Made by a program: the position numbers and the translations under genes | Source: Bacillota bacterium | GTDB taxonomy: Bacteria; Bacillota_I; Bacilli_A; RF39; UBA660 | NCBI GenBank assembly: GCA_015059155.1 | Contig: SVAX01000002.1 | Coordinates: 85,561-149,560, forward strand | DNA: 64,000 nt | Direction of reading: 5' to 3' | Shown here: in pieces, positions 25,847-64,000 of the stretch | Layout: each line of letters starts with the position of its first letter | Numbering within the stretch: position 1 is the first letter of the stretch | Notes under the pieces: generated by a model | Seen by the model: the letters and a program-made list of their open reading frames with translations, nothing else | What the model was told of the DNA's origin: nothing | Databases searched by the model: none

Positions 25847-25859
25847 GAGATGTAAAATT

Positions 25860-26342: not shown

Positions 26343-26400
26343 TATTTAAAATTATATAAAATATGATAAAATTAATAATAGAAAGGTAGTGTGATACAAA

Positions 26401-27642: not shown

Positions 27643-27853
27643 ACGAAAAAATTAGTAAATAATTATTGCTGATTTTTTCTTTGTTTGTTAAAATGGTTAT
27701 AGAGATTGATTCTTATATCAATCGTCTTTGTGAAAAGTTGTAGATAACTACGACAATCGCACCATAGGGAAATTAGTCGAACTAATCGACTTTAATATAT
27801 GAAAGGTTAATTTCACTTAACCTTTTTTATATGCTCGAAAGGAGTTGATTAGT

Positions 27854-28138: not shown

Positions 28139-28276
28139 ATGATAAAATAAATAATTGATTGAAAAGACTATATTAAAGTGGTGGTTCAATGATAGTATTT
28201 ATTTTAAAATCAAATATATTTAAAGAGAGTCAATGATATTAGTATTATCTAGTATTTTTGCTCTCTTTTTTGGTAA

Positions 28277-30073
<1,797 letters not shown>

Positions 30074-30292
30074 AAAATTTGGTACAAAACTATGTACCAA
30101 ACATTTTCAAAAAATAATCAATTTAAAGTACAAATTTAATGATTTTGTCATACAATTGTTAACACAAATGTTATAACAAATGTATGACATTGAATAAAAA
30201 CATTAATAACAAGGTAAGAATTTCCTAAAATTTTGTTATAACAAATGTCGGACACGCTATGTCAATGTCTGACATTTTTTAATTAAACAAAC

Positions 30293-30383
30293 CCTTTAAA
30301 TATAAAGGCAAACTACTCACTGGGTAGTTGTTTGTCTGACAAAATTATCCCGCTCTAAAATCATACACGACTTGGTACATAAA
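30293..30383 (+). promoter_or_regulatory. oriT-like conserved non-coding element, copy 1
   Basis: AACTACTC-ACT-GGGTAGTT hairpin (30311-30329), TATCCCGC (30346-30353), GGTACATAAA; homologous to 55722-55833 on the minus strand. Confidence 0.55.
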
Positions 30384-30455
30384 ATTGTTAAATTATGATT
30401 GATTTTAGAGAATAAAAACACATAAGCATTAAACTTATGTGTGTATTTTTATAAA

Positions 30456-31556: not shown

Positions 31557-31770
31557 TTAGATAACCTCACTTCTTTTATGATTATATCATAAAAAATACT
31601 ATTTTTCATTACATTTTATAGATTTTATGCTATAATTGACATAGAAATTAACCATTCTACATTTTTCCAAATGTGGTTTGCTTATGCACCATTTAAAAAC
31701 AACTTACGGACCAATAGGTTTCGTAGGTTTTTATTTTATGTTCTCTTTTCTAGAAAGGAGAACATTTTTT

Positions 31771-32055
31771 ATGATTAAATTTAAAGTTATAGAAGAATTA
31801 AAAACTAATACTGAATTACTAGAACTTTTAGAAAATTACGCTTACACAACTAAAAAAGGACAAATTAAATATTTAACTAATACCAATCTAAAATTCATAA
31901 AACCTATTGAATATATAGTCAAATCCCCTACTGTTCTTACTATATACGAATACAAAGTAAACGAAATAAGCAATAAACCATTTTATATCAAAGAACTTAA
32001 TCAAAAATATAATCTTACTGAACTTAAAGAAATATTAATAAAATTTAAAAATTAG
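31771..32055 (+). CDS. Divergent small protein preceding LSR C
   Basis: ATG behind AAGGAG; same position and size (94 aa); NLKFIKP and KYNLTELK resemble NLSYIEP and KIKLNELE. Confidence 0.6.
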   Translation: MIKFKVIEELKTNTELLELLENYAYTTKKGQIKYLTNTNLKFIKPIEYIVKSPTVLTIYEYKVNEISNKPFYIKELNQKYNLTELKEILIKFKN

Positions 32056-32126
32056 ACTTAACTTTTTAATTTTAAAATGCTAAACATATGAGAAATATTA
32101 AATTTTAGTCTGAAAAAACACATTTG

Positions 32127-32256
32127 AGTGAGGTATATAATGAGGGAATAAATTTTTAGGGGTAAAAAACTTGATTTAAGTGAGGTATATAGTGAATAAT
32201 AAAATAATTTTTTTCAATTTTACCCGAATAAATAGCTTTTAAGTGAGGTATATAGT
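32127..32256 (+). repeat. Three direct repeats AGTGAGGTATATA upstream of LSR C
   Basis: Copies at 32127, 32179, 32242. Confidence 0.75.
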
Positions 32257-32269
32257 AGGAGATGATTTT

Positions 32270-34057
32270 ATGAGTAAAAGAACAGGAGTATATGTTAGAG
32301 TAAGTACAGATGAGCAAAGAGATAATGGATATTCTATTGATTCACAACTTAGAATGATTAGAGAATATTGTGAAAAGAATAATTATGATATTATTGATGT
32401 TTATAATGATGCTGGACACTCTGGTAAAGATTTAATGAGACCTCAAATGAAAAGATTACTAGAAGATATTAAACACAAGAAATTAGATGTTTTAATGGCT
32501 ATTAAAGTAGATAGACTAACTAGAAATAACTATGATGGATTTTGGCTGCTAAATTATTGTGAACAAAATGATGTTAAAATTGAATTAATATTAGAACCTT
32601 ATGATGTAGGAACTGCTAATGGTGAAATGATATTTGGTATGAATTTAGTATTTGGACAAAGAGAAAGAAAAGAAATAGGAGCTAGAACTAAAAGAGCTAT
32701 GGAAGAAATGGCTTTGGAGAAAATACATCCAAATAAGGCTCCTTATGGCTATATTAGAGACAAAGACACAGGACACCTACTTGTTAATCATATTGAAGCA
32801 GAAGTCGTTAAAGAGGTATTTAAATTATATTCTAAAGGTAATTCTACAAGAACTATTGCTAAAATATTAAAAGATAATAATGCTTATTTAGTTAGTGGCA
32901 AATGGACAAGCGATAGAGTTCATAAAATATTAAACAATTCTATTTATATTGGTATTTTTGAATATGGCAAAGATAAAAGAAAAGAAGAAGATATATTAAG
33001 AGTTGAAGATTACTGTGAACCTATAATAGATATGAATTTATGGAATATAACTAGAGTTAATTTAGAGAAAAATAAAAATCCTAATTATGGTAAGCACATT
33101 CATTTATTTACTTCTATAATTAAATGTCCTGAATGTGGTAAAACATTATCTTCTACTAATTCATTTAAATACTGTGGTACACCTAGAGAAAAAGTTTATT
33201 ATCATTTAACTTATAAAAATCCTAATTGTAAATCTAAAGGAATTCATTATAGTGCGGATAAGATAGAAAATAAACTTATGAGAGTTTTAGATGAATTAAC
33301 TAGATATATGTATGATATGGATAATGAAATAATAATTTGTAATTCTACTAAATCTAAAGATATTAAAGATATAGAAAAAGCCATTGATAAATTAAAAGTT
33401 CAAGAAAAAAGATTAGTAGATTTATATTTAACATCTAATCTAAATGTAGAAGCAATTAATCATAAAAATGAAATGATAAAAAAAGAAATAGATAAATTAA
33501 TTAAAAAGAAAGATAGTTTAGATCCAAATAAAGAAAGTAAAGAATATGCTTTAGAATTGGTAAGTAAATTGGAATATCAAAAAGAAAATGACTTATATTT
33601 ATTTAACGAATTAGGATTCTCATTTATGTGGAATAGTTTAAATAGAAAAACTAAAAAAGAATTAATTAATAAATTAATAGCTAATATAGAAATATCAAGA
33701 AATGAAAACTATGATATAGAAATTAATAATATAAGATTTACTGATGAATTTATATCTAAAAATAATAAAGAGTACTTAGAATATCTAAATGATATTTTAG
33801 AGAATAATGAAATTGGTATTAAATATAAAGAACAAATTAATAGTAAAGATTTAACTAAATTAAAAAAAGATTACTATATATACTCTACTCAAAAAATGGA
33901 AAATAAAGAATATACACAAATGGATTTAGATAAAATGTATGAACTATTTGATGAACACTTTTACTATGATGGAATTATAGGATGCCCATTAAATCAAGAT
34001 GGTAATATTGTAGATTATCTATTACTAATACCTAAAACAAATGTAATTTATGAATGA
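32270..34057 (+). CDS. Large serine recombinase (element C); third zinc-ribbon Cys replaced by Tyr
   Basis: YVRVSTDEQ, KVDRLTR, CPEC...TYKNPNC; start MSKR behind AGGAG. Confidence 0.9.
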   Translation: MSKRTGVYVRVSTDEQRDNGYSIDSQLRMIREYCEKNNYDIIDVYNDAGHSGKDLMRPQMKRLLEDIKHKKLDVLMAIKVDRLTRNNYDGFWLLNYCEQNDVKIELILEPYDVGTANGEMIFGMNLVFGQRERKEIGARTKRAMEEMALEKIHPNKAPYGYIRDKDTGHLLVNHIEAEVVKEVFKLYSKGNSTRTIAKILKDNNAYLVSGKWTSDRVHKILNNSIYIGIFEYGKDKRKEEDILRVEDYCEPIIDMNLWNITRVNLEKNKNPNYGKHIHLFTSIIKCPECGKTLSSTNSFKYCGTPREKVYYHLTYKNPNCKSKGIHYSADKIENKLMRVLDELTRYMYDMDNEIIICNSTKSKDIKDIEKAIDKLKVQEKRLVDLYLTSNLNVEAINHKNEMIKKEIDKLIKKKDSLDPNKESKEYALELVSKLEYQKENDLYLFNELGFSFMWNSLNRKTKKELINKLIANIEISRNENYDIEINNIRFTDEFISKNNKEYLEYLNDILENNEIGIKYKEQINSKDLTKLKKDYYIYSTQKMENKEYTQMDLDKMYELFDEHFYYDGIIGCPLNQDGNIVDYLLLIPKTNVIYE

Positions 34058-49763: not shown

Positions 49764-50837
49764 TTAATTTAATTTTAAAACTTGGCCTATGCTTAGTACT
49801 GTAGTACCTAAATTATTTAATTTCATTAATTCACTTACTGTGGTATTATTTGATTGGGCTATCTTATATAAACTATCTCCACTCTTGACTGTATATGTAC
49901 TTGAACTATTATTTGGTAATTTCAACACTTGACCTATGCTTAATAAAGTGCTAGATAAATTATTTAAATTCATCAGTTGACTTACTGTTGTGTTATTTAC
50001 TCTAGCTATTTCATATAAATTATCTCCACTTTTTACTGTATATGTATTTACTGCACTAGATGTACTAGGTAACTTTAAAACTTGACCTATACTTAATGCT
50101 GTACTGCTTAAATTATTTAAACTAACTAACTCATTTACTGTCGTATTATAGTTTTGAGCTATCTTATATAAACTATCCCCACTCTTAACTGTATATGTAT
50201 TACCAGTAGGTGTAACTACAGGGATTTCTAATATTTGACCTATACTAAGAGAAGTAGATGTTAAATTATTCAACTTCATTATTTCACTTACTGTAGTATC
50301 ATAATTTTGTGCTATTTTATATAGACTGTCTCCTCTTTTTACTACATAAACATTTTCTTTTGGTTCTTCTTTTTCAATAACAGGGATCTTTAATACATCA
50401 CCAATTGTAAGCATAGAACTAGTAAGCCCGTTAGCGTCTTTTAAATCTGGCACACTTATATTATACTTTTTAGCTATACTCCATAAGCTATCTCCACTTT
50501 TTACTGTATAATAGTTTGCTCCCTCTACAGGCACATATGTTAAATTTAAATATTCTATAATAGCCCTAACAACTGCTTCTGCATAATTTTCCCAGTTGTT
50601 TTTTAATTGACTAATATCATCACCAGTACTATCTAAAAAACCATACTCTACTGTAATAGACTCTGTATCTCCTGTATTTCTTTGCATAAAATAATAATCT
50701 TTTGACGTATCACTAGGTAATCTTCTTTGATATGCTTTTCTGATATTTTGTCCTTCGTTTTCTAGCTCTGTTAATATTAAATTAGATAATGTATCTTTAT
50801 TTCTAAGTGCATAAATCACTTCAGCACCATCGCCACC
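49764..50837 (-). CDS. 3' fragment of split N-acetylmuramoyl-L-alanine amidase with five LysM repeats
   Basis: Begins GGDGAEVIYALRN; catalytic VEYGF; five YxVKxGDxL LysM repeats; the MDTR start comes from element DNA. Confidence 0.9.
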   Translation of the reverse strand, partial: GGDGAEVIYALRNKDTLSNLILTELENEGQNIRKAYQRRLPSDTSKDYYFMQRNTGDTESITVEYGFLDSTGDDISQLKNNWENYAEAVVRAIIEYLNLTYVPVEGANYYTVKSGDSLWSIAKKYNISVPDLKDANGLTSSMLTIGDVLKIPVIEKEEPKENVYVVKRGDSLYKIAQNYDTTVSEIMKLNNLTSTSLSIGQILEIPVVTPTGNTYTVKSGDSLYKIAQNYNTTVNELVSLNNLSSTALSIGQVLKLPSTSSAVNTYTVKSGDNLYEIARVNNTTVSQLMNLNNLSSTLLSIGQVLKLPNNSSSTYTVKSGDSLYKIAQSNNTTVSELMKLNNLGTTVLSIGQVLKLN

Positions 50838-51036
50838 ACGTGTATCCATTTACCAATAGTAAATAAAATATTGTATATAAGAATAAAAATAAAGTGATGA
50901 CACTAGACGCTAAATCGCCACGACCATCACTCCTATTACATAGTATTAATCTATGTAAAAAGTATGTCTCCAACGAATGATACATAAAAAGTCCCAAACA
51001 GCACGTCCGAAACGAATGGAGCATTTACTTTAATTA

Positions 51037-51101
51037 AGCAGATTGTTCCGACCGACAAGATTGATATTCAATCAGTAAATCGGTTTGTAGAACAATCTGC
51101 T
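51037..51101. repeat. Long imperfect hairpin, copy 1
   Basis: AGCAGATTGTTC/GAACAATCTGCT 12-bp stem; inner TTCCGAC...GTTTGTAGAA. Confidence 0.75.
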
Positions 51102-51422
51102 AATAGTAATTATACTTAAAAATTTTAAAAAGTCAATCAAATATTAAAAAAAGCCATCAATCCCAATATACGAATCAAGACTTTTCTTTTATTAGATTAT
51201 TCATAACAATTATTAAATAAATCAGTATGACTATAATCTACTATTATTTCAAAAAATTAAACTGATTCATAAATCAATCTTCATCATACGTCCAAAACGT
51301 CGAATAGTTTTTTGATATAAAGATTATAACATTATAACTATAAAAAATCAAACTAGTATAGCAACTTAACTTACATTTTAGCATTATACATGATATACTA
51401 TAAATAGTTAAAGAGGTGAATT

Positions 51423-52007
51423 ATGAAAATAATAAAAGACCATCGTTATTACATTGATGAATATAAAACATTGAAAAATTTTCTTGATGGTTTAATAGAA
51501 TTGCTTAATAATAAAAAAATTAAAGGAATATTTTCTCAAGACGCAATAACATACTCGTCTAATGCAAAATTTACAGATAAAATATATAGTCTGATTGATT
51601 ATAATTTTATTGTTTTTGATGATGATACAGTTATAAAATTTGAATATAATTTTTTTAGTATGCTGTATGTATACTACACTGATATAAAGTGTTTATGGGA
51701 TGAAGATCTAGAAATAATAAAAAACGAAGCATTCAAGTTAGAATTAGATTATTCCAACAGCTCCATAATAGATTATGAAATAGAAAGATTCTCAGATGAA
51801 TATATAATTAATCCAAGGGATGATGCAACTAGACCAGAAGGTGGAGACTATTTTAAAGAAATTATATTTCATTTAAGCAATAACAAAAAATTATGTATAT
51901 GTGCAGAAAATGCAGAATTTGATGGATATTGTGATGTCTGGATAGAAAATGATAACTTAAAAGGAATATACAATAGTGATAGTCATAAAGTTTGGTGGAA
52001 AGATTAA
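51423..52007 (+). CDS. Hypothetical protein
   Basis: 194 aa, GAGGTG RBS. Confidence 0.65.
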   Translation: MKIIKDHRYYIDEYKTLKNFLDGLIELLNNKKIKGIFSQDAITYSSNAKFTDKIYSLIDYNFIVFDDDTVIKFEYNFFSMLYVYYTDIKCLWDEDLEIIKNEAFKLELDYSNSSIIDYEIERFSDEYIINPRDDATRPEGGDYFKEIIFHLSNNKKLCICAENAEFDGYCDVWIENDNLKGIYNSDSHKVWWKD

Positions 52008-52014
52008 TAAAAAA

Positions 52015-52072
52015 CAGTTTATTCCGACAGGTCTTCTAAATAAATTAGCGAGTCTGTTTGTAGAATAAACTG
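52015..52072. repeat. Long imperfect hairpin, copy 2
   Basis: CAGTTTATTC/GAATAAACTG stem; same TTCCGAC...GTTTGTAGAA core with compensatory stem changes. Confidence 0.75.
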
Positions 52073-52230
52073 AAAAAACATAGGATGTGGAATTAAATGA
52101 CTTATAGTCCTTCAATATTAACGTCCAAAACGACACATCTGGTTTTTATAACAATACTATATAATAAATTATAATTATTGTCAATTAAATATTGAGATTT
52201 TAATATATAATAAAAACAATATTTTTAGAG

Positions 52231-52767
52231 GTGAATAATATGTGGATAAAATTTAATTTAGAAGAAATGATTTTGGAATTGAAAATAGAAAATTATGAAC
52301 CTAATCAAACGCTTGATGGTTCTTGGACAAAAGTATCCTTTAATTTTAAGTTTGAAAACATAATTAACTATAGTACACAAAATAATGAAATTTTATTATG
52401 TTGTGAAATTGATGAATTAAGAGATAAATTTTTTAATTTATTAAATGACAAATTAACAGAAAATGTTTATTATAGTTGTTTAGAACCTGATTTTGAATTT
52501 ATACTTCGTCCAAAATTTGATGTTCGCAATAATCCGAATTTAATATATGTTAAACCAGGAAATGAAATTATTGATATAGATATGGAATTAAGGGTAAATC
52601 TATGGAATAATGGACTAACATGTAATTATTTTTCTACTTCATTTTATAGGGAAGAAATAAATAATTTATACTTATATTTTTCTTTAATATCTAATAAAAT
52701 ATCCTTAAATGATGAAAAAATAAAAAAATTAATTGATTTAGGGATTATTTATAGAGATACTAAATAA
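52231..52767 (+). CDS. Hypothetical protein (WapI/immunity-like appearance)
   Basis: Acidic/aromatic; LEPDFEF motif; family assignment weak. Confidence 0.55.
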   Translation: MNNMWIKFNLEEMILELKIENYEPNQTLDGSWTKVSFNFKFENIINYSTQNNEILLCCEIDELRDKFFNLLNDKLTENVYYSCLEPDFEFILRPKFDVRNNPNLIYVKPGNEIIDIDMELRVNLWNNGLTCNYFSTSFYREEINNLYLYFSLISNKISLNDEKIKKLIDLGIIYRDTK

Positions 52768-52797
52768 ATTTATTGTATTTTTGAAAGAAGGTATTAT

Positions 52798-53508
52798 ATG
52801 AGCTTATTAAAAGGAAAACATTTTTTTGATACTATATATCATTATGACAACACTGAAATCATTTTAAAAAAAGAGAAAAATAAATACTACATTATCGTTA
52901 ATAACAAAAAATTTGAATTTAACAGTTATAAAAAAGCAATTAATTATGGAATAATAGAATCATACCCTAATATAAAAATTAATATTAAAGATATAGATAA
53001 AATACTAAATTATTACCAAAAAATAGAGAAAATCAAATTAAAAGGGCAAAAACTGGGCAAAGACTTTTTTATAGATTATGAAGATGAAATGAAAGATGAA
53101 AATGATTTTTCTAATTATTGGATAAGAAAGAAATTAAGTGAAAAATATTATAAATTACCACTCGATAAAAGTAGCAAAAATATAAATGATAAAATGCTAT
53201 ATAAAAAATATGTATCTACTTTGGAAGATTTAATTGAAGAAATAAAATCTATAAAAGAAGATAAAAGAGACTTGGAAATGTATTGTATTCTAAATTATAG
53301 ACAGGTTGATTGTATAAATAGATGTGTTGAGGTAGATGAAGGTTGGTCAACTGATTTGTTAAAATTTGAACAATATTATAAAGAAATGATTGATTTTATA
53401 TACTATCCAGGATTTAAGTATAATGAAATTTCATTAGAAGAATTAGCTATAATTCAAATGATGGCATCACATTTAATATTACGAGCAAAAAATTTAATAA
53501 AAAAGTAA
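52798..53508 (+). CDS. Hypothetical protein
   Basis: 236 aa ORF, AAGG RBS. Confidence 0.55.
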   Translation: MSLLKGKHFFDTIYHYDNTEIILKKEKNKYYIIVNNKKFEFNSYKKAINYGIIESYPNIKINIKDIDKILNYYQKIEKIKLKGQKLGKDFFIDYEDEMKDENDFSNYWIRKKLSEKYYKLPLDKSSKNINDKMLYKKYVSTLEDLIEEIKSIKEDKRDLEMYCILNYRQVDCINRCVEVDEGWSTDLLKFEQYYKEMIDFIYYPGFKYNEISLEELAIIQMMASHLILRAKNLIKK

Positions 53509-53585
53509 TATGAAAATTATAACAAGCTTTATTAAAAATTATAATAATATTCCAACTTCCATTAACACAAAGATAAAAAACTTTT

Positions 53586-55244
53586 CTATTTTGTTTTACC
53601 TTTTTTACCATATGGATTTCTAATTAATTTTTTATTTTCATATCTAAAATTTATTTCCGGTATAACTTCATATTTAAATTTAATATTTATGTTTCTATTT
53701 TCATCTATCACAATTTTATCTATTAATGTATCAATTAGCTCTTTTTTAGGTTTGTTTAAATCTAAAAGTTTTTTTATTTTTTTAGTATAATTTGGCAAAA
53801 TATTTGCCTTATTTTTTATGTTTTCAATTTTATTCTTTTCTATTTCAATGCTATTATTAATTTTCTTTAATTTCCTTTCTGATTCCATAGATAGTTCTTT
53901 ATATAGTTCAGTTGTTATTATTCCATCACATCTATCATTATATAAATTAGATAATCTATTAATTATTTGTTCTTTTTCTAAAGTTAATTTATCAATAATT
54001 TTATCTATACTTTCAGTTTCTTTATGTATGTTTTTAACAACTTCTCTATTTAATTCTTGTAAATCTAATTCATTAATAAATATATATACAGCTGATTCAA
54101 TTTGTTCTAATAATTGTTGTTCTAAATAATCATATGGATAAAAATGAGAAGAACATCTACCCCTTTTTGGATCCCTAGAATATCTATTACAATTAATTGA
54201 CCAGTAATCAAACTTCTTTCTATAATAAACTGATAATCTATTACCACACTCTTTGCAATATATTTTTCCTTCAAACATTCTTTTAGGTCTTGTAGTTTTT
54301 AAAGAATAATTTCTAGAATGTCTATTCTTTAATGTTTGTACATATTCAAATGTTTTTTTATCTACTAATGGCTCATGAGTATTTTCTACTATTATCCACA
54401 AACTCTTATCTAAAGTTATTTTCTTCTTTGATTTATAATTAACTTTTGATTGAGTGTGTTGTACCATATCACCTGTATAGATTCTATTTGTAAGAATCTT
54501 TTTTACTGAAGATATATTCCACTCATCTCTAATAATTAATCTTGAAGAAAATTTAATATTCTTATATTGACTTGGAGTTGGTATATTTTCATTATTAAGT
54601 CTAGTTGCAATTTCAGTAGGACCAATGCCATCTACTCGCCATTTAAATATTTTTTTTACTGTCGGAGCTGTTTTAGGATCTGGTATTAAATGTCCTTTAT
54701 CTTCTGGATCTCTCATATATCCATAACTTGGTTTACTACCTATAAATTTACCATTACGTCTTTTGTCATTAAGTACATTTTTAATCTTAATAGAATTTTG
54801 TTTACTATAATAATCATTACAAGCAATAATAAATGTTGATGAATCATTACTCGCTTGATTTTTAAAACTATCATATGATTCTAGAATTGAAATAAATCTA
54901 ATACTATTCTCTGGAAAAAATGTTTCTATGTAATATCCAGTCATAACATGATCTCTACCAAATCTTGATAAATCTTTAACTATTACACAATTTATTTTTT
55001 TCTTTTTAATATCTTCTAACATTTTTTGAAATCCAGGTCTATCAAAATTTGTTCCTGAATATCCATCATCAACATATTCTCCAGATAAATTAAAATTATT
55101 ATTTTTAACATAACTTTTTAGTAATTCTTTTTGATTAATAACACTTTCACTATCAGATTCATATTTTTTATCTTTATCTTCTTGAGATAACCTAATGTAT
55201 ATTCCTACATTAAATTCTTGCTGGAGTAAATAATTATAATTCAT
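53586..55244 (-). CDS. Large serine recombinase (TnpX/CisA-like)
   Basis: YIRLSQED, VKDLSRFGR, GSKPSYGY, CKECG..C...C. Confidence 0.95.
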   Translation of the reverse strand: MNYNYLLQQEFNVGIYIRLSQEDKDKKYESDSESVINQKELLKSYVKNNNFNLSGEYVDDGYSGTNFDRPGFQKMLEDIKKKKINCVIVKDLSRFGRDHVMTGYYIETFFPENSIRFISILESYDSFKNQASNDSSTFIIACNDYYSKQNSIKIKNVLNDKRRNGKFIGSKPSYGYMRDPEDKGHLIPDPKTAPTVKKIFKWRVDGIGPTEIATRLNNENIPTPSQYKNIKFSSRLIIRDEWNISSVKKILTNRIYTGDMVQHTQSKVNYKSKKKITLDKSLWIIVENTHEPLVDKKTFEYVQTLKNRHSRNYSLKTTRPKRMFEGKIYCKECGNRLSVYYRKKFDYWSINCNRYSRDPKRGRCSSHFYPYDYLEQQLLEQIESAVYIFINELDLQELNREVVKNIHKETESIDKIIDKLTLEKEQIINRLSNLYNDRCDGIITTELYKELSMESERKLKKINNSIEIEKNKIENIKNKANILPNYTKKIKKLLDLNKPKKELIDTLIDKIVIDENRNINIKFKYEVIPEINFRYENKKLIRNPYGKKGKTK

Positions 55245-55296
55245 TTATGCCTCCTTTCTATTTAATAAAACACTTAAGTAATTAAATAATAACGCG

Positions 55297-55404
55297 CTAT
55301 TTAAAAAAATACAGCGCCTTATTTTCACTTTTTTCATTTTCTTTTGTTATCTCTTCAATAAGATATTTCAAAATTAAATCTTTAAAAGTTATATTGTTAT
55401 TCAT
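55297..55404 (-). CDS. 35-aa ORF upstream of the LSR
   Basis: MNNNITFKDLILKYLIEEITK...; AGGTG RBS; not in ORF track. Confidence 0.4.
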   Translation of the reverse strand: MNNNITFKDLILKYLIEEITKENEKSENKALYFFK

Positions 55405-55515
55405 AGCAACACCTATTTAAAGTTATGTTTTGTTTATTTACTTTATTATTTTTTAAATACATTTAAATCCCCCCTTTTTAATAATTAAAAGGTCCCTATG
55501 TTTCGGACATAAGGA

Positions 55516-55686
55516 CTATTTTTGACTTTCAAGTATTACTATAAGATTGTTATAAACATAATCTTTTAATAGATTTTCTAGAACAGATTGAATAGTAGTT
55601 TTCTTTATTTTAAGTATTTGTCTAAATGCGCCATTAAGATTAGAATCAATCACAAATTTAATTTGAATATTTTTTTCATTGTTCAT
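55516..55686 (-). CDS. 56-aa ribbon-helix-helix-like DNA-binding protein
   Basis: AAGGAG RBS; IQIKFVID alternating strand, then helices (GAFRQILK, IQSVLENLLKDYV); not in ORF track. Confidence 0.55.
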   Translation of the reverse strand: MNNEKNIQIKFVIDSNLNGAFRQILKIKKTTIQSVLENLLKDYVYNNLIVILESQK

Positions 55687-55721
55687 TTTTTCATCTCCTT
55701 TCTTTAAATTTTTGTATCAGA

Positions 55722-55833
55722 TTTATGTACCTAAAATTGCTAATTTTCAAATTTTGTTTCAATCAAAAAAAAGCAGGATAACTCCTGTTTACAAACAACT
55801 CACCAGTGGTGAGTTTAGCCTTATTTTATAAGG
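55722..55833 (-). promoter_or_regulatory. oriT-like conserved non-coding element, copy 2
   Basis: AACTCACC-ACT-GGTGAGTT hairpin (55797-55815); TATCCTGC (55773-55780) matches the IncP/T-border nick consensus YATCCTG/Y. Confidence 0.6.
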
Positions 55834-55870
55834 TATTGTTAAAATTGTAAGTGTTTACACTTGATGAGAT

Positions 55871-55930
55871 TGTTATACAATCGTAAACTTTTGAACCCTT
55901 ATTTTTCAATGGTGTTATACAATCGTAAAC
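55871..55930 (+). repeat. 18-bp direct repeat TGTTATACAATCGTAAAC
   Basis: Copies at 55871 and 55913, next to the oriT-like site. Confidence 0.8.
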
Positions 55931-56044
55931 ACTTTTTCGCGTTTTTTTGAGCTTGTTTTCGTACCTAAAAATATAACTTTTTTAATATATTTGGTACCTT
56001 AATTTTGATATTATTTATTTTTAAAGGGGGTATTGTAGAATATG

Positions 56045-56114
56045 AAAAAAGCACTGACTCTATTTTTAAAATCAGTGCTTGATACACTCTTATGTACAGT
56101 TATTTCATATTCTA
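56045..56114 (-). ncRNA. Putative sRNA unit 1
   Basis: TTGACA(56142-56147)-16-TATAAT(56120-56125) with TG; hairpin 56049-56080 plus U-tract. Confidence 0.5.
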
Positions 56115-56321
56115 TCACAATTATAGCACAGCATTTAGGATTGTCAATAGGATAAAATTTAGGATGAAAAAAGGCAAAAAAACAGGATGCAAAATCTTCT
56201 TAGCCTTTGAAAAATATAATGTTTCTCTAAAACAAACTTACGTAGTAAGTGGGGGTATTGACAGGAATAGAAACTTTTTTCATAAAAAATTTATCTTAAA
56301 AACAATGTAATAATAGAATAT

Positions 56322-56391
56322 AAAAAACATTACTATTTCTCATAAAAAACAAATAGTAATGCTCACTTAAATACACTTATTTCATATTCTA
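56322..56391 (-). ncRNA. Putative sRNA unit 2 (paralog)
   Basis: TTGACA(56419-56424)-16-TATAAT(56397-56402) with TG; same 5' TAGAATATGAAATAA; hairpin 56328-56361 plus U-tract. Confidence 0.5.
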
Positions 56392-56570
56392 ACATAATTA
56401 TAACACGTATTTGTTGTATGTCAATATGGAACTTTTGTCTGAAAAAAAGTTGGAAAAAATGTCTGATAAAAATGCAATTAAGCATTGAAAATACTGGAAT
56501 TTTTAAAATAGATAAGACCATAGATAAAGAGGTATTGACAGGGGTAGGTAATTTTTTTGTTAAAAATTTT

Positions 56571-57005
56571 TTAAGACTTTTCGCAAATATCAGAAATAGA
56601 TATTTTAAATTCTTTACAAAATTTATATAAATTTGAAGTAGAAATACAAATTAATCCTTTTTCATATCTAACAATGCAAGCTTGAGATACACCTATAATA
56701 TCAGCTATATTCTCTTGAGATAAATTATGTCTAATTCTTAATTGTTTCATATTTTTACCAAGTGCAATTAGATTTAATCCTTTTTTAATAGTTTTAGGTT
56801 TTTTGTTATTCGTTAACCCTAATACATAATCAATGCTTACATTGAAGTAATCTGCAAAATCACATAAATTTTTTAATGGAATAATATTTATTCCTAATTC
56901 CCATAATGAATAAGTTGAACGATTAACGCCTAAAATTTCAGACATTTTTGTTTGATTAATATCATTATCTTCCCTTATATCTTTTAATCTTCTAAAGTCT
57001 ATCAT
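56571..57005 (-). CDS. XRE-family repressor with two HTH domains
   Basis: LKDIRE..NQTKMSE.LGV.RSTYSLWE; second HTH LSQENIADIIGVSQ..IVRYEKG. Confidence 0.9.
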   Translation of the reverse strand: MIDFRRLKDIREDNDINQTKMSEILGVNRSTYSLWELGINIIPLKNLCDFADYFNVSIDYVLGLTNNKKPKTIKKGLNLIALGKNMKQLRIRHNLSQENIADIIGVSQACIVRYEKGLICISTSNLYKFCKEFKISISDICEKS

Positions 57006-57132
57006 ATCTATCACCTATTATTATTTTCACATTTATAGTGATAAATATGTAAAATTTGCTATTTTAAGTTATAATTATTGCTATTTTGTGTTATAATTTA
57101 TTTGAACAATTAATTAAAGAAAGGATTTATTT

Positions 57133-57411
57133 ATGGATGATGAAAATAAATTAGTAGATAAAATAATTAGTTGGCAAATAAATTATCAAATTAAAAATTC
57201 TAAAATAACTATAGACTTTTTAGAAAAGAAACTACAATTATATAATAAAAAAATTATTATATTAGAAAAAGAAAAACCTTTATTTTTTCAAAAAAGAAAA
57301 TTAAAAATATATAATAATAAATTGAAAAAATATAATAATGAAATAAAAGAAATACTTCTTCATATGGAAGAAGAAATTAATTTTATAGCAAAACTAGAAA
57401 ATAAAAATTAG
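57133..57411 (+). CDS. Small coiled-coil hypothetical protein
   Basis: Divergent from XRE; AAGGA RBS. Confidence 0.5.
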   Translation: MDDENKLVDKIISWQINYQIKNSKITIDFLEKKLQLYNKKIIILEKEKPLFFQKRKLKIYNNKLKKYNNEIKEILLHMEEEINFIAKLENKN

Positions 57412-57414
57412 GAG

Positions 57415-57600
57415 GTGATAAACATGGAAAAGAGAAAAAAAGTAATATATAATTGCATAGATGTAATAGACCCAAATTTAACTGACGAAGATTTAAAAGA
57501 AATTATAAATATGAAAATTGCAAAAATTACTTTTAGAAATGAGTTTAACATTAATTATATTCCAAATAAAGAAAAGAAATTAAATACACAGAAAAATTAG
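57415..57600 (+). CDS. Small hypothetical protein
   Basis: GGAGGTG RBS; coupled to previous ORF. Confidence 0.45.
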   Translation: MINMEKRKKVIYNCIDVIDPNLTDEDLKEIINMKIAKITFRNEFNINYIPNKEKKLNTQKN

Positions 57601-57622
57601 ATACTTTGCTTGTATCTAATTT

Positions 57623-59005
57623 TTAAATAAATTCTTTTAATAATTCTTCTAAATAACTATTATTAATCCAGAAGCAATGTTTAGTATATTCAGTTGCTCC
57701 TGTTAATTTATCAGCAACTGGTAATGGATAAGCATCTTGGGCATCTCTTGCATGAGGCCTAACATGACACACTTTATTCTCTGAAGCACCTGGAAAATTA
57801 GTCTCTCTATAGCCCTTATCAACAGACTTAACAATATTTCCACTCTTTATAATATCAACAGTCTTTTGCCACATAGTTTGAACTTCATTATCTATAACCA
57901 TCTCGGGCATATTCCATAATTTAATTCCTTTAAATATATATTCATTGTTTTCCATTTTAAATACAAAGAATAAATATTTAGTTGATTCTAAACTTTCTCT
58001 TAAATCAGAATTTTCCCATTCTTGATTTACTAATTCATTATATTTAAAAGCAGGAAAAGACATTGATTCTTTAATTCTTCCATTTTGTTCTATTCTAACA
58101 GTCTTTGGAATGATATTAGCTTTTAAGAATTCTTCTGTTTCATTTAAACTGCCCTTAACACCAAACATTCTACTAACAAGAATTGAATTAATACTCTTAG
58201 CTGTGGAGTCAATATTAAATAACTTCATCAATTCTTTTTGTGTTTTTCCTTTATATTTATTAATAACATTATTTACAAATTCATCGAAAGTTTGATTCGT
58301 ATTAGCTAATATTTTTTCTACATTAGAATAATCACCTATAAATTTTCTAACTAATTGTGTCATATAAGAAGTTTTAAAACAGAATGCTCTATTTTTAGCT
58401 AATATATCACTGAAAGGTTGTTTTCTTTTAGAACTAGCATTTACTCCTTTAGTACACGCACCAAGATACATTGTATCTCCTTCTGATATTTCATGAGCTT
58501 TACCAGCTTTTATTTTATTTATAACTGTGTACCAATCTTGTTCTATTTGCTTAATATCTTCACTTTCAGCCAAATTCATAAGAATTTCATTAGTAATTTT
58601 AAAATCTAATTTATCTTTATTTTCTTCGTGCAAATACCACATTATTTCTAATCGATTATTTTTAAACCAAAAATGACTAGAAAAGAATTCGTTTTTATAC
58701 TCTGTCATATAATCAATCATATTTAATACTAATCTTTCTTTAGCTGAAAGCGTATTATCTTTATTTCTTTTATAAGGAGTTACTTTTAGTTCAATACCTG
58801 CATCAATAAAGTCTGGTTCAGATTCTCCGTTTGCTTCTATGCCAAATAAAGATTGTTCAATTATTCCACCCAAAGACCCTTTAGTAATCTTGCCATCTTC
58901 AACAGTTATAACTTCTGTATCTCTTATATCTCTAAATGATTTACCAATAGCGGATTGAGCTATAAAACCAATTTCTTCTTCTAAATAATGTCTTCCTTTT
59001 TTCAT
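57623..59005 (-). CDS. Sau3AI/MutH-family restriction endonuclease
   Basis: KGSLGGIIEQ, PDF..GIELKVTP, YLGACTKG, second pseudo-domain, HVRPHAR, CFWINNSY. Confidence 0.9.
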   Translation of the reverse strand: MKKGRHYLEEEIGFIAQSAIGKSFRDIRDTEVITVEDGKITKGSLGGIIEQSLFGIEANGESEPDFIDAGIELKVTPYKRNKDNTLSAKERLVLNMIDYMTEYKNEFFSSHFWFKNNRLEIMWYLHEENKDKLDFKITNEILMNLAESEDIKQIEQDWYTVINKIKAGKAHEISEGDTMYLGACTKGVNASSKRKQPFSDILAKNRAFCFKTSYMTQLVRKFIGDYSNVEKILANTNQTFDEFVNNVINKYKGKTQKELMKLFNIDSTAKSINSILVSRMFGVKGSLNETEEFLKANIIPKTVRIEQNGRIKESMSFPAFKYNELVNQEWENSDLRESLESTKYLFFVFKMENNEYIFKGIKLWNMPEMVIDNEVQTMWQKTVDIIKSGNIVKSVDKGYRETNFPGASENKVCHVRPHARDAQDAYPLPVADKLTGATEYTKHCFWINNSYLEELLKEFI

Positions 59006-59177
59006 AAAAATTCTCCTTTCGATCTTGTTTTAATATAAAATTTATAGTAAAATATTATTATAAAAAGTTGATCTTTTATCAAAAATAAGCTATAATACAT
59101 ATTATAGGGTTGATCTTTACAACTAACTATATTATAATATATATAGTAGAATTTAACAAGAAACAGGAGGTATTTAA

Positions 59178-60416
59178 ATGAAAAAAACATGTGTAGAACT
59201 ATTCGCTGGTGTGGGTGGATTTAGATGTGGATTAAATAATGTTTCATTAAAAAATAATAAAGTTGAAGAAAAAGGAAATTGGAATTTTGTTTGGGCTAAC
59301 CAATGGGAACCTGCTACAAAAACTCAAGATGCATATAATTGCTATGGAACAAGATTTGGGTTTGAAGATGTTAGCAACGTTGATATATTTGAAGTTAATA
59401 AAAAAGAAATTCCAGACCACACTTTATTAGTTGGTGGATTTCCTTGTCAAGATTATTCGGTAGCGCAAACATTATCTAGTAGTAAAGGTATAGAAGGAAA
59501 AAAGGGTGTGCTTTGGTGGGCTATCGAAGAAACATTAGCTATTAAACAACCACCTTTTGTTCTATTAGAAAACGTTGATAGATTATTATTATCTCCTGCT
59601 AAACAAAGAGGTAGAGACTTTGGAATGATTTTAAGAAGTTTTTACGAAAATGGTTATAATGTAGAATGGCGAGTTATTAATGCTGGTGAATATGGATTAC
59701 CACAAAAAAGAAGAAGAACTTATATATTTGCATATCATAAATCAACTAATTACTATAAACAAATGCAAAAAGAAATAGATAGAGATATAATCTTCGAAAA
59801 AGGAATATTTGTTAAACAATTTCCTATTAAAGATGAATATGAAGCAATAACAAAATCATCTATTTCAGATTATAAAGACTTAATAGAAGTAAGTAATTCA
59901 TTTAAATGTGAATTTTATAATGCAGGAATTATGATTAATGGTGGAATTTACACTGTTAAAACTAAATCTGATTATAATTTAATTTATCCATTAAGAAAAA
60001 TTAGAGAAGAAAAAGAAGTTGATAATAAATTCTTCCTAACAGGTGCTCAAATTGAAAAATTTTCATATTTAAAAGGTAGTAAAAAAATACCTAGAATAAA
60101 ACCAAATGGTGAATCTTATAACTATTGTGAAGGAGCTATGCCTTTTCCTGATAATTTAGATGCACCAGCAAGAACAATGCTTACAAGTGAAAGTGGAGTT
60201 AGTAGAACAACTCACGTAATAGAAGATTATAAAACAAAGAAACCAAGATTATTAACTCCTAGAGAGTGTGAAAGAATAAATGGATTTCCTGATGACTGGA
60301 CTGACACAGGAATGACTGATAAAAAAAGATATTTTATGATGGGAAATGCACTTGTAGTTGGAGTAATAGAAAAAATTGGAATTGAAATTGAAAAAATAAT
60401 TGAAAATGAAAATTAA
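59178..60416 (+). CDS. dcm: C5-cytosine DNA methyltransferase, M.Sau3AI-like
   Basis: ELFAGVGG, WANQWEP, GGFPCQDYSVA, LENVDRLL..P..QRGRDF, Q.RRR, GNALVV. Confidence 0.93.
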   Translation: MKKTCVELFAGVGGFRCGLNNVSLKNNKVEEKGNWNFVWANQWEPATKTQDAYNCYGTRFGFEDVSNVDIFEVNKKEIPDHTLLVGGFPCQDYSVAQTLSSSKGIEGKKGVLWWAIEETLAIKQPPFVLLENVDRLLLSPAKQRGRDFGMILRSFYENGYNVEWRVINAGEYGLPQKRRRTYIFAYHKSTNYYKQMQKEIDRDIIFEKGIFVKQFPIKDEYEAITKSSISDYKDLIEVSNSFKCEFYNAGIMINGGIYTVKTKSDYNLIYPLRKIREEKEVDNKFFLTGAQIEKFSYLKGSKKIPRIKPNGESYNYCEGAMPFPDNLDAPARTMLTSESGVSRTTHVIEDYKTKKPRLLTPRECERINGFPDDWTDTGMTDKKRYFMMGNALVVGVIEKIGIEIEKIIENEN

Positions 60417-60591
60417 CAAAAAAATACTATTTCAAAATGAATAGTATTTTTTTCTTATAATTCCTTAGGACAATTAGGTTTATATTTAATATCACTAAAA
60501 CCATATACTTTGTTTCAATAACGAATATAAATTCAACTTCATTTATTATATGTGCATTTTTTATACTAAACTTAAATTAATAGCATTTTAA

Positions 60592-63495
60592 TTATACATT
60601 TTTACATAACCTTTTGATTCGTTGAAATTTTCTAACATTATTTATTTTCAAAATTTTTATAATATGTGAATATGTTTGTTTACTTAAAGCCAATTTTCCA
60701 GTTTTAACTTTTTCAATTATATTTTCCACAAAATCCTTTTCACTTGATTCATCTATTTTTGTTATGCCTCTCAAATACTCTCTTAACTCATCTGAATTCG
60801 GATTTAAATAACGTTTTTCATATATAACCTCAAAATCTTCTACCTTTTGTGGTAATTTAATTAGCATTTTTATTTTATTATAAGTTAAATCAGAATAACT
60901 TAGCTTTTCCTTTAAATACTCCAAAATAGGCAAATCTATTATATAATCTGTCGTTATTTGATTAGAGTTTTTAAAAAATATTAAATAGTATGGTTTTAAT
61001 TTTTCAAATTTTTCTTCCTCATAAATTATATGATTTAATCTAGGAAATTTTGAATAACAATATCTGGAATAAAATTTTAATTCAAATAATTGATTTTCTA
61101 TTTCTTCTGTATGTTGATAATAATAAGATAATTTAGGTATATATTTTCTAGATTCCGAAGAAATATTATTAACAATGTTTAATATATCAACATATAAAGA
61201 TTCCTCCTTTTTTTTAGTATTTTCATCCAATGAATTTAGATAATTTATAATTTGTTTTTCTCTTGCAATCGGCAATATTTTAACTTGATTTACAAATTCT
61301 TTTAAGTCTTTCAAATCATTTAACGATAATGCATCATAGTTTTTATTATACAACAAACATAAATTAGTTCTATTATATTTACTAAAGTCAAATCTATAAA
61401 AGATGTTTCTAAACAATTTCATGTCTATATCTTTTATTTTGTCAAAAAAATTAATTAATACATCAAATTTAATATAATAATTTGAAACAATAAAATCAAT
61501 TATTTCATAAATTGTTTCAGTTATTTTTTCTTTTGATATTAATAAGAAAATCAAATTAGGAGATTGACATTTTCTTATTTCGTCAATTGTTATCAACGGC
61601 ATATTATTACTGTATAAAGGTAATAAGTTTTCATTTAAGCCTAACACCTTTATAATTTCTTTTCTATATTCAATAATTTGTTTATCATCATAATTTTGAT
61701 TTAAATCATTGCATAATAAATTTATATAATCTGTTGTTAGCATTATACTATTTAAACACATCATTTTCTTTAACATTTTTTGGACTTTCTTATATCCGTT
61801 TTCACTAGAAAAAATAAAATTAGTTTCTAAATATTCTAGTATTTTATCATAATATAATTCTTCTGTTATTTCATATAATATTTTATTATCAAATATTATA
61901 TCTGGCACCGCTGTTTCATTGCATTTTTCAGATATAGACTTAATTATAATATTTTTAGAAGCTTTTTCACAATATAAATCAAAATCTGGTATATTTTTCT
62001 TTGAATTAACAAATATTGCATTTTGAATTGCATTATCAAAAATATTCTTTATAGGTTTACTTTTAGGATATTTGTAAAAATACATTGAATAGTCCGCAGC
62101 TACAATCCCTTTTTCTAAAGCTTTTTTAATTTCCATATAAAAATCATTATTATCAGATAATTTACTAAAAGTTCTTTTTATTAAATATTCTGAAACAACA
62201 TGGTTAAAATTTTGAGAATCATTAACTAAAGCATAAAACTCTGAATTATATTCATCCTCTAAATATGAAACAAATAAGCAGGTTTCAATATTAATATCTA
62301 TCAATTCGGGTGTTTCAAGTGTTTTCCTATGCTGATATAAATTTTCATATAGTAGAATAAAATAATTAAATCTATGTTTAATATCTCTAATTGATACATT
62401 TTTACCTTTATATAAATAATTCCATATTCCCATTTCATCCTCACTTTTTGGAATATCTATTTCTATTTCCTTTAATTTTTGTTTTTTATGTGAAATTAAT
62501 TGTAATAAAACAGAACCATAATTTTGAAAAGAAACCGTTTGTAAATTAATAATTATATCAAATAATTTTTCATATAACTCTTTATATTCATCTACAATGT
62601 CTTTATCTACTTCTTGTTCTTTTTCTTGTAAACACTGTTGTTTATCTTTTTCTATAAACATTTTTGAATCTTTTGCTAATAAATAAGGTGGTTTTAAAGA
62701 TATTATAAATTTTACATTTATATCATTGTTTTCTGTATAAAACTTATATATTTGTTCTAAAATTCTAATTACAAGATTAGAATCGTTATATCTATCCAAA
62801 TCTTCTATACAAATTATTACTTGACGATATACTGAATCTTTATTTATAAATTCATTAATGATTTCATTAAAGCATTCACTAGTATCGCTTTCATTTATTT
62901 TTCTATTTGTTGTCTCCTTATTAAAGCTTAAATATAATTTTGAACCAGATAAAATATATGCAAAACATATTGATACAGTTAAATCAATAATGAAATTACA
63001 TACCCTTGGAATGGTAAACCCAACTATGTCTAATTTCATTATTATATTAAAAAAGAAAAAACCCAATAATACAAACATCCAATAAATATCATTTTTATTT
63101 CTCATTGAAATGTTAAACAAAGTATATTTATCATCTATTTTTTTATTAAAATAATCTTTATTAGAGTTTTCTGGTAATGCAGTAATTAATTTCTTTAGCA
63201 AAAACTTATGTATACCAATTGTTTCATCATCTATATTAATGATTTTACTTGGTTTGTCTATTTCTTTTATTTTCCACAAATTTATATTAATAAATTTTTT
63301 ATTATTTTTTATGTTTTCTTTATTTTTTACCATATTAATTATTGTACTCTTCCCAGAACCATAATTTGATACTAACCCAATCATTTTTGCATCACTATTA
63401 ATTGCATCGATAATATTATTTACATATACTTCATATCCTATTGCATCTTTTTCTTCTTTTTCTGGTAAATCTAGTAAAAATAAATTTTCTTTCAT
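60592..63495 (-). CDS. KAP-family P-loop NTPase with two TMs and long helical C-terminus
   Basis: GLVSNYGSGKST, ININLW, TM pair, ICIEDLDR, KLFD, SIRDIK. Confidence 0.85.
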   Translation of the reverse strand: MKENLFLLDLPEKEEKDAIGYEVYVNNIIDAINSDAKMIGLVSNYGSGKSTIINMVKNKENIKNNKKFININLWKIKEIDKPSKIINIDDETIGIHKFLLKKLITALPENSNKDYFNKKIDDKYTLFNISMRNKNDIYWMFVLLGFFFFNIIMKLDIVGFTIPRVCNFIIDLTVSICFAYILSGSKLYLSFNKETTNRKINESDTSECFNEIINEFINKDSVYRQVIICIEDLDRYNDSNLVIRILEQIYKFYTENNDINVKFIISLKPPYLLAKDSKMFIEKDKQQCLQEKEQEVDKDIVDEYKELYEKLFDIIINLQTVSFQNYGSVLLQLISHKKQKLKEIEIDIPKSEDEMGIWNYLYKGKNVSIRDIKHRFNYFILLYENLYQHRKTLETPELIDINIETCLFVSYLEDEYNSEFYALVNDSQNFNHVVSEYLIKRTFSKLSDNNDFYMEIKKALEKGIVAADYSMYFYKYPKSKPIKNIFDNAIQNAIFVNSKKNIPDFDLYCEKASKNIIIKSISEKCNETAVPDIIFDNKILYEITEELYYDKILEYLETNFIFSSENGYKKVQKMLKKMMCLNSIMLTTDYINLLCNDLNQNYDDKQIIEYRKEIIKVLGLNENLLPLYSNNMPLITIDEIRKCQSPNLIFLLISKEKITETIYEIIDFIVSNYYIKFDVLINFFDKIKDIDMKLFRNIFYRFDFSKYNRTNLCLLYNKNYDALSLNDLKDLKEFVNQVKILPIAREKQIINYLNSLDENTKKKEESLYVDILNIVNNISSESRKYIPKLSYYYQHTEEIENQLFELKFYSRYCYSKFPRLNHIIYEEEKFEKLKPYYLIFFKNSNQITTDYIIDLPILEYLKEKLSYSDLTYNKIKMLIKLPQKVEDFEVIYEKRYLNPNSDELREYLRGITKIDESSEKDFVENIIEKVKTGKLALSKQTYSHIIKILKINNVRKFQRIKRLCKNV

Positions 63496-63750
63496 TTTTT
63501 ACACCTCTACTTCTAAAAAAAAGCAATATTAACCCATTAAAAGATTAATACTGCTCATCTTCTAAAAAGATTATAGCATATATTTTAACATTTTTTGCAA
63601 AATAGTAAATAATTATAGTTAAAATTTCAATTTTATTATCATTTTAAGTGCTAAATATTATTTTTAGTAAAATTATATCTATCGATTTATTTGTTTAAAT
63701 ATGAGTGTCTTAATACCCAATCCTCAGTTGCAGTGGCAAGTGCACTCTCC

Positions 63751-64000
63751 ACCTCCTGCATTTATGTGATTAGAAACAACTATAACATCGCTGCTATCTC
63801 CGAATGCATTTAAAACTCTATTTACTCTTTCTGTAGGACTTAATGTTTCATCTGTAGTTCTAGTCATTTTAACATCTAAACCTAAATCTCTTAATCTATT
63901 ATATATATACTCAGATATTTTTAAAGTATATTCTTTTTCTATTATACCATTTCCACTAGCACCAGGATCATTTCCACCATGTCCAGCCTCATTGTTAACA
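63751..64000 (-). CDS. 5' fragment of the split amidase (Amidase_3), runs off window
   Basis: AGHGGNDPGA..IEKEYTL..MTRTTD..SNHINAGG, then diverges into element sequence (ECTCHCN*). Confidence 0.9.

Follow-up and report, generated by a model that had tools for sequence, protein, structure and literature searches.

The gene-intervening elements so far described in sporulation include skin in sigK, SPbeta in spsM, vfbin in spoVFB, vrin in spoVR, gin in gerE and yin in yabG (PMC4191935, PMC5595907, PMC5025042, PMC10747680); in the literature on such elements we found no case of an amidase gene or of spoIVA. Here we analyze a stretch of 64,000 nt from a Bacillota bacterium of the RF39 lineage (assembly GCA_015059155.1, contig SVAX01000002.1), hereafter called the window, in which a gene encoding an Amidase_3 domain and five LysM repeats is cut by an element of 12,916 bp. 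The interruption is almost certainly due to a site-specific large serine recombinase (LSR) element whose removal restores the gene, and we consider it moderately probable that developmentally regulated excision rebuilds a working amidase late in sporulation. The element is probably a non-phage, site-specific gene-intervening element of the same kind as skin, SPbeta and gin, and is also horizontally mobile.

Among the described systems, gin is a non-phage element found in gerE of Bacillus cereus ATCC 10987, with the GirC recombinase and GirX (PMC5595907). The element analyzed here resembles gin in its lack of phage genes, its apparently sporulation-associated target, its combination of an LSR with a small accessory factor (a candidate only in our case) and the restoration of the reading frame by precise excision (in silico in our case). 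It differs in size and recombinase content, having 12.9 kb and one LSR vs 28.6 kb and three LSRs in gin, in its target, which is an amidase rather than a regulator, and in a candidate factor of 35 aa. Moreover, the family to which it belongs occupies its site in more than half of a bacterial family.

SPbeta, which interrupts spsM in B. subtilis, carries SprA and SprB (PMC4191935, PMC5499854), and the mother-cell promoter of sprB combines a perfect -10 element with an imperfect -35 element (PMC4191935). Our element has a comparable small gene just upstream of the LSR, under a candidate promoter of the mother-cell type (good -10, weak -35), and its LSR apparently has a promoter of its own; both elements are mobile as well as gene-intervening. 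SPbeta, 134 kb in length, is an active prophage, whereas the element studied here is without phage genes. The skin element of sigK is associated with SpoIVCA in B. subtilis, and with CD1231 and the recombination directionality factor (RDF) CD1234 in C. difficile (PMC5025042). The present system shares with it an LSR-bearing element located in a mother-cell gene (a probable one here) and a wide but patchy spread among related species. In contrast, skin is derived from a prophage and its target is a sigma-factor gene that controls the developmental programme, whereas here the target is probably an end-stage enzyme and the cargo consists of restriction-modification (RM) and defence genes.

The Split Amidase Gene

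Coordinates follow the numbering of the window, and genomes of relatives carry labels beginning with G, the present genome being G000. The amidase gene lies on the minus strand and is cut at the codons for NAGGGDGAE. Its upstream piece enters the window at 63999 and departs from the amidase sequence at 63751, after ...VVSNHINAGG; another frame restarts at 50837 with GGDGAEVIYALRN, crosses the five LysM repeats and ends with a stop codon at 49764, again on the minus strand. The pentanucleotide GGTGG of the gene strand (CCACC on the plus strand) is present at both junctions, namely at 63749-63753 beside the upstream piece and at 50833-50837 beside the downstream piece, the two copies of this core repeat being 12,916 bp apart. 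On the gene strand the flanks read ...AAT GCA GGA GGT GG at the first of these positions and GGTGG CGAT GGT GCT at the second, and when joined in silico at the repeat they give AAT GCA GGA GGT GGC GAT GGT GCT, and the joined frame reads NAGGGDGAE as in intact homologues. A previous, sequence-only reading of the window had proposed an amidase-LysM gene split in frame by a 12,916 bp element, with CCACC common to both junctions and the NAGGGDGA frame restored by excision; its coordinates, sequences and in-frame join are all confirmed, and the in-silico join is identical to intact homologues.

The part of the gene upstream of the element, or piece 2 (codons ~8-85; 63749-63987, minus strand), is delimited by alignment to intact genes and contains the zinc-ligand motifs AGHGG, EKE and SNHIN. 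The part downstream, or piece 3 (codons ~86 to the stop; 49764-50837, minus strand), encodes the remainder of Amidase_3, with the glutamate of VEYGF, together with the five LysM repeats recognized by Pfam, and aligns in one frame to residues 86-443 of the intact homologue P0004. Zinc ligands and glutamate lie in the 5' and 3' piece, respectively, as the sequence-only reading had placed them. Each piece covers Amidase_3 in part, and judging from this distribution of motifs neither can be a working enzyme alone. The joined protein matches Pfam Amidase_3 (PF01520) over positions 5-173 of 174 with 93.8 bits, whereas piece 2 alone matches only positions 5-78; the joined amidase also aligns with Cwp6 of C. 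difficile and with 4rn7. More than 7,900 relatives are present in a collection of 5.8 billion proteins, the best of which are 94-96% identical and have SNHINAGGGDGAEVIYALRN unaltered. The reconstructed empty site is colinear with the intact loci of relatives, which align across the junction with 82-85% nucleotide identity extending into the downstream genes.

The same joining in silico produces an attB that contains AATGCAGGAGGTGGCGATGGTGCT and, at the junction of the excised circle, an attP that contains GGATACACGTGGTGGAGAGTGCAC. Our recount of the inverted repeat in attP agrees with the 11 of 20 positions reported earlier (about 0.003 by shuffling), and a close relative of the element has 15 of 20 with the common arm motif AGTGGCAAATG. 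GG may be the crossover dinucleotide, as suggested by the related element in genome G003, whose junctions overlap by GG alone. The recombinase encoded by the element (53586-55244, minus strand) has 552 aa and the same orientation as the amidase. Its Resolvase (PF00239), Recombinase (PF07508) and Zn_ribbon_recom (PF13408) domains all score above the Pfam cut-off, the serine motif YIRLSQED is found at residues 16-23 and the protein is assigned to the integrases of phrog_95; its match to DUF4368 has just 18 bits, under the cut-off.

A Second Interruption Near the Start Codon

The sequence-only reading had considered the upstream piece to be the 5' half of the gene. An upstream amidase piece is indeed present, but it is incomplete, since its homology to intact genes ends at codon ~8 and it has no start codon. 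Intact genes begin with MAKVVIDAGHGG; the window copy has ISYLVNNEAGHGG after a stop codon, and homology starts only at GCTGGACATGG, around position 63987. The 107 nt left on the contig upstream of piece 2 encode the C-terminus of another protein, which an independent contig from JGI (L066, 100% identical over 19.1 kb) extends to >411 aa containing Recombinase, zinc-ribbon and DUF4368 domains. By its domain composition this protein is a second large serine recombinase, hereafter abbreviated as LSR#2. The right end of its element occupies 63988-64000 of the window (minus strand), the LSR#2 gene stopping at about 64008, just outside it. Relatives G059 and G011 show the same layout, in which the LSR gene ends ~40 nt before an amidase piece starting with ...HGG.

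The amidase gene is thus in three pieces, because the start codon is missing and the DNA upstream of piece 2 carries the 3' terminus of another LSR gene. It follows from this second interruption at codon ~8 that removal of the 12.9-kb element alone does not rebuild the gene. Piece 1 (the promoter with codons 1-7) and the remaining part of LSR#2 were found neither in the 69.6%-complete assembly nor through overlaps of contig ends, and piece 1 was not found upstream of the second element of G059 either. The LSRs located at codon 8 belong to a different clade of the phylogenetic tree from those of the codon-85 site. Elsewhere in the present genome, two further LSRs of 675 and 690 aa (C3:54923-56950 and C14:15895-17967, respectively) lie in the LSR#2 clade; one of the two is directly upstream of a 400-aa gene that resembles FtsW/RodA/SpoVE when judged by eye, and the other is beside a glycosyltransferase-like gene.

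Distribution of the Elements in the Family

The same amidase site is split in 29-30 of the 51-52 genomes of the family, or ~57% of those holding the gene. Splits at residues ~77-90 were counted in 12 cases within the genus, against 9 intact genes, and in 17-18 cases within the other genera of the family, against 13 intact genes; outside the family six genes are intact and none is split. All the breaks in the 16 junction sets that were read fall within the codons of NAGGGDGAE, within about 15 nt, and the register of the junctions varies with the subclade of the LSR, the overlap being GG, GAGGT, GGTGG or about 12 nt. The phylogenetic tree places every LSR of the codon-85 site in one clade with support of 99/98; its nearest outgroups are the spoIVA-splitting LSR of G004 and an LSR of G024 located beside a truncated gene for a P-type ATPase.

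Nine elements, ranging from 9.1 to 14.6 kb, are fully assembled. Their constant features are the LSR, located in the 3' third and in the orientation of the amidase, and a micro-ORF (a very short open reading frame, ORF) preceding it. The cargo elsewhere consists of a type I RM system with a reverse transcriptase, a type III RM system or a Dcm/HATPase/Z1/AspBHI-Mrr set, while close relatives of the present LSR are accompanied by Fic/EcoRI-methylase/GmrSD or Bpu10I RM cargo. At the same amidase site, the elements of G013 and G036 (loci L020 and L024) have TnpV (127 bits) and an HTH_36 protein just upstream of the micro-ORF, and this presence links the family to clostridial LSR transposons of the Tn4451 type. 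The similarities with Tn4451/Tn4453, which have TnpX and TnpV, thus include TnpV in related elements, the TnpX-like DUF4368 tail of LSR#2 and the excision of a circle by an LSR, which is proposed in our case. The present element differs from these transposons in having no match to TnpV, Mob or relaxase among its ORFs and in its strict specificity for one codon window, the targets of TnpX being looser than that. The 1-Mb genomes of the lineage have up to 11 LSR-type matches each.

Other genes that are or may be interrupted were observed in relatives. In G004 (C25:7500-14000; locus 1231-5091 of L037) spoIVA is split after ...MVKTPW by an element of ~3.1 kb, which encodes a 527-aa LSR, a 76-aa ORF overlapping the start of this LSR and having a motif like that of the micro-ORF, and a protein with a DnaJ domain. 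The spoIVA gene of G005 is also in two pieces, located on two contigs. In G024 (GCA_017536505.1; L001, 3477-6821) a 533-aa LSR is directly upstream of an ORF for a P-type cation ATPase without its N-terminal domains, at 5 kb from an intact amidase gene; the ATPase gene is possibly a further case of interruption by an LSR element.

The Host Lineage and the Amidase Promoter

Genomes of the genus and family have 0.8-1.6 Mb and ~25% G+C, and are labelled by NCBI as Bacilli bacterium, uncultured Tenericutes or Candidatus Faecisoma. Walled spore formers are predicted among the uncultured orders RFN20, RF39 and ML615J-28 (PMC10868615). Within the genus we found Spo0A_C in 12 of 13 genomes, and SpoIVA and SpoIIID in 9 of 9 genomes each, all three being present in G000; moreover, a GerA operon adjoins one carrier locus. 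Because Spo0A, SpoIVA and SpoIIID are present, the host lineage, which consists of uncultured gut bacteria with small genomes, is, on the basis of its gene content, a spore former.

In 27 of 32 orthologous loci from >15 genera, AC-N16-(C/A)ATAnnnT(A/T) and a ribosome-binding site (RBS) stand before the amidase start at a constant distance, in split and intact alleles alike, and the sequence around this motif is unconserved. The sigma-K promoter pattern of Bacillus subtilis is AC, 16-17 nt and CATA---TA. In the genome as a whole the motif occurs at a frequency of 0.12 per kb, and its combination with an RBS and an ORF marks only five genes in the assembly, including a CotJA/CotJB fusion and a LysM protein. 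The apparent fusion is a 160-aa protein encoded around C1:~48925 (minus strand), matching CotJB and, weakly and below threshold, CotJA, and has the same layout of AC-N16-CATAnnnTA and RBS as the amidase. By analogy, the amidase may be a late enzyme of the mother cell, acting either in mother-cell lysis like CwlC or on the spore envelope. A separate paralogue of CwlD size (~220 aa) exists.

Selection on the Split Alleles

Each of the 38 pieces of split genes that we examined, 21 downstream and 17 upstream, consists of one open frame with no stop codon or frameshift. The dN/dS values computed for the catalytic domain within the genus (Nei-Gojobori) are closely similar in comparisons between intact alleles (0.076), between intact and split alleles (0.070) and between split alleles (0.071). 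The split allele of G009 differs from the intact allele of G005 by four synonymous changes and no replacement (dN 0, dS 0.037). No relaxed selection was thus found in the split alleles by dN/dS, a test that is weak and is applied to insertions of uncertain age. The promoter is also retained in split alleles. Taken together, the open frames, the dN/dS values and the kept promoter argue for continued selection on the split gene and hence for precise excision where it matters, within the limits set by the uncertain age of insertions that are horizontally mobile.

A Candidate Directionality Factor

The small gene mentioned above is a micro-ORF of 35 aa (MNNNITFKDLILKYLIEEITKENEKSENKALYFFK) at 55297-55404 on the minus strand, directly upstream of the LSR. 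An equivalent ORF of 30-39 aa, with a core like FKDLILKYLIEEI, is found in the same position in 9 of 9 fully assembled elements, and the codon differences of this core from the two nearest relatives are mostly synonymous. Genome searches with a profile of the micro-ORF gave one match per genome, ten of them strong and only beside an LSR of the amidase-site clade, and no match in the genomes having an intact amidase allele.

The region preceding the micro-ORF contains a candidate promoter of sigma-E/K type (55420-55448, minus strand), reading TAATAAA-N14-CATAACTT and followed by the RBS AGGTG; more generally, CATA(A/C)nnT is found 8-10 nt before the RBS of the micro-ORF. This promoter is similar to that of spoIVA in the same genome, GAATAAG-N13-CATATATT. 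Terminator-like hairpins flank the unit in the present element. The upstream one, identified by a scan at 55492-55516 (minus strand), may shield it from upstream transcription, and the downstream one was read in the sequence by eye. On the basis of this conserved position, exclusive association with the LSR and promoter type, the micro-ORF is our candidate for the directionality factor of the recombinase.

A different arrangement was seen in G025 (contig C126; L026 record, 18928-24181), where LSR and micro-ORF have the reverse orientation relative to the amidase 5' piece of that contig, unlike in the nine assembled elements; an inversion, or else a tandem or composite element, could be the reason.

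Proposed Programmed Excision and Its Alternatives

The sequence-only reading had left the choice between a regulated DNA switch and a disruptive insertion retained by its RM cargo, a role of the cargo that is conceivable. The structure of a site-specific LSR element stands, and the evidence now leans to a regulated rearrangement, given the spore-forming host, the sigma-K-like promoter, the common but undecayed split, the micro-ORF and the sister LSRs that split spoIVA; no excision product was seen. Because the target of the LSR family is the DNA encoding the invariant NAGGGDGAE motif, and insertion occurs there with a crossover of 2-5 nt, precise excision restores the frame. According to the mechanism that we favour, the 35-aa protein would be made in the terminally differentiated mother cell from its promoter of sigma-E/K type and would turn the recombinase towards excision by attL x attR recombination. 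The amidase gene would then be rebuilt in the mother cell, and the forespore chromosome would retain the element. Insertion would thus be nearly free of cost to the host, which could account for the presence of such elements, with varied anti-phage cargo, in more than half of the related species. The second, unrelated element at codon 8 would also have to leave before a working enzyme could be made.

A broader form of this proposal, which we put forward only tentatively, is that the amidase gene constitutes a landing pad with two sites, i.e. two codon windows for catalytic motifs used by two LSR clades, which would host 'germ-line-safe' defence islands controlled by factors of 30-39 aa under mother-cell sigma factors. 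Anti-phage cargo would then spread among species almost free, the interrupted gene being needed only in a cell that is dying.

Several observations weigh against programmed excision. Some concern the present locus, namely that piece 1 and the amidase promoter are missing from this assembly, that the amidase matches no named sporulation equivalog (72 bits for CwlD vs a cut-off of 222) and that the RDFs named in the literature compared here exceed the 30-39 aa of the micro-ORF. In addition, the exact 45-mer of attB and 29-mer of attP are absent from the metagenome contigs of JGI, and the attP 29-mer is absent also from viral contigs. The protein collection contains no intact allele closer than 96% for this species or 80% for a second carrier species, and the two carrier species, assembled in 8 and 16 contigs, show the split form only. 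Both models can accommodate these absences through stable integration during vegetative growth. Finally, the undamaged state of the gene halves could partly reflect young insertions, and the recombination module of 5.1 kb (51032-56165) is 91.6% identical in nucleotides to that of an element whose host has a ~70% identical amidase and different neighbour genes. By this comparison the elements are clearly mobile between genera. The idea of old, vertically inherited insertions was discarded, since the comparison of close LSR homologues showed horizontal transfer instead.

Strong evidence of horizontal movement and cargo swapping is also what a plain integrative element would leave. Such an element would use a conserved coding sequence as its landing site and knock out a dispensable amidase, its excision being rare, unregulated and serving only for transfer, with young insertions of fast turnover. 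The lack of attB and attP in JGI contigs and the exclusive split form in the two carrier species speak for this alternative, as does the presence of TnpV and HTH_36 in related elements, as in Tn4451-type LSR transposons, the TnpX recombinase of which performs excision without a separate factor. We nevertheless regard it as unlikely, although it is a rival to be taken seriously. It has to accommodate about 29 split species, 38 pieces without stop or frameshift, unchanged dN/dS and a kept promoter, when by our rough estimate ~1.25 kb of neutral coding sequence at 25% G+C breaks after ~1% divergence; the LSR modules of different carriers differ by ~8%. It also gives no role to the micro-ORF unit with its CATA -10 element.

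The possibility that the amidase is an autolysin turned on and off by a reversible vegetative switch of the 'active lysogeny' type, with excision and reintegration driven by stress or phage independently of sporulation, appears improbable. In the closest relatives the -10 element of the amidase (AATATAATA) does include a perfect TATAAT, so that sigma-A could act there, a further point against programmed excision in sporulation. The element also encodes its own Xre-type regulator, and re-entry is conceivable given that LSR integration is efficient. Yet most amidase orthologues have the CATAnnnTA -10 of sigma-K type with AC at -35 and without TATAAT, the promoter of the micro-ORF resembles that of spoIVA in G000, and sister LSRs split spoIVA, which is a mother-cell gene; moreover, two independent elements within one gene would have to act together. 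An artefact of assembly or binning, i.e. a chimeric contig joining the element to amidase fragments, could be imagined for a 70%-complete metagenome-assembled genome (MAG) whose contig ends 98 nt past the window, but it is practically dismissed by the independent JGI contig, which spans both junctions in a 19.1-kb stretch of 100% identity, by the presence of this exact LSR in eight contigs and by the same architecture in dozens of other genomes.

Other Genes of the Element

The interior of the element spans 12,911 bp (50838-63748), or 12,916 bp when one core copy is included, and is not that of a prophage, a possibility rejected after PHROGs searches matched only an integrase, a methyltransferase and a regulator and no structural, packaging or lysis genes. 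A terminator-like hairpin (50991-51013, minus strand) lies just inside the element end, upstream of piece 3 of the amidase; its arms are related to those of the hairpin at 55492-55516 (GTCC...GGGAC and GTTTCGGAC). Three cargo ORFs of 194, 178 and 236 aa follow on the plus strand (51423-53508), the second of which has a weak match to WapI-like immunity proteins, and the same trio is found in locus L150. Beyond the recombinase and the micro-ORF, a regulator of Xre/RstR type with two HTH_3 domains is encoded at 56571-57014 (minus strand). It precedes a type II RM pair (57623-60416) formed by an endonuclease of the Sau3AI family (57623-59005, minus strand) and a C5 cytosine methyltransferase (59178-60416, plus strand), which are recognized by NCBIfam NF040973 (514 bits) and TIGR00675, as well as by the PADLOC models REase_II and MTase_II.

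The largest gene (60592-63495, minus strand) encodes a protein of 967 aa with the P-loop GSGKST. Searches of PADLOC, NCBIfam, Pfam and PHROGs gave no family for this protein or for the ORFs of 194, 178 and 236 aa, save the weak WapI-like match. A weak NCBIfam match to XisF was also obtained, with 71 bits vs a cut-off of 375. Elsewhere in the window, three more serine recombinase matches are present around positions ~21740-33727 (C9:107300-108475, 113864-114838 and 117839-119287). They have 21-28% identity with the LSRs analyzed here and are probably components of further elements in tandem.

Implications

An analogous situation occurs in heterocyst-forming cyanobacteria, where nifD, fdxN and hupL are interrupted by elements with XisA, XisF and XisC, respectively, which are removed in a terminally differentiated cell, some lineages having several elements per gene. 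The organism group and the developmental programme differ from ours, and the comparison is one of analogy only. What distinguishes the present system is the amidase target, the two elements in one gene, the occupancy of ~57%, the interchangeable defence cargo and the very small candidate factor.

Two practical aspects deserve mention. The amidase 'pseudogenes' encountered in MAGs are probably functional split genes, and should be annotated with caution. Furthermore, the elements provide a compact collection of LSRs, diversified in nature and of known attB and attP, together with a candidate factor of 35 aa, which may be of interest to users of serine integrases as tools. For the biology of these bacteria, confirmation of excision would make the amidase, and spoIVA in relatives, new members of the small set of genes that sporulating cells reassemble by programmed excision. 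It would also mean that an uncultured lineage of reduced genomes uses this strategy very commonly, and that the strategy is tied to the spread of RM and other defence systems.

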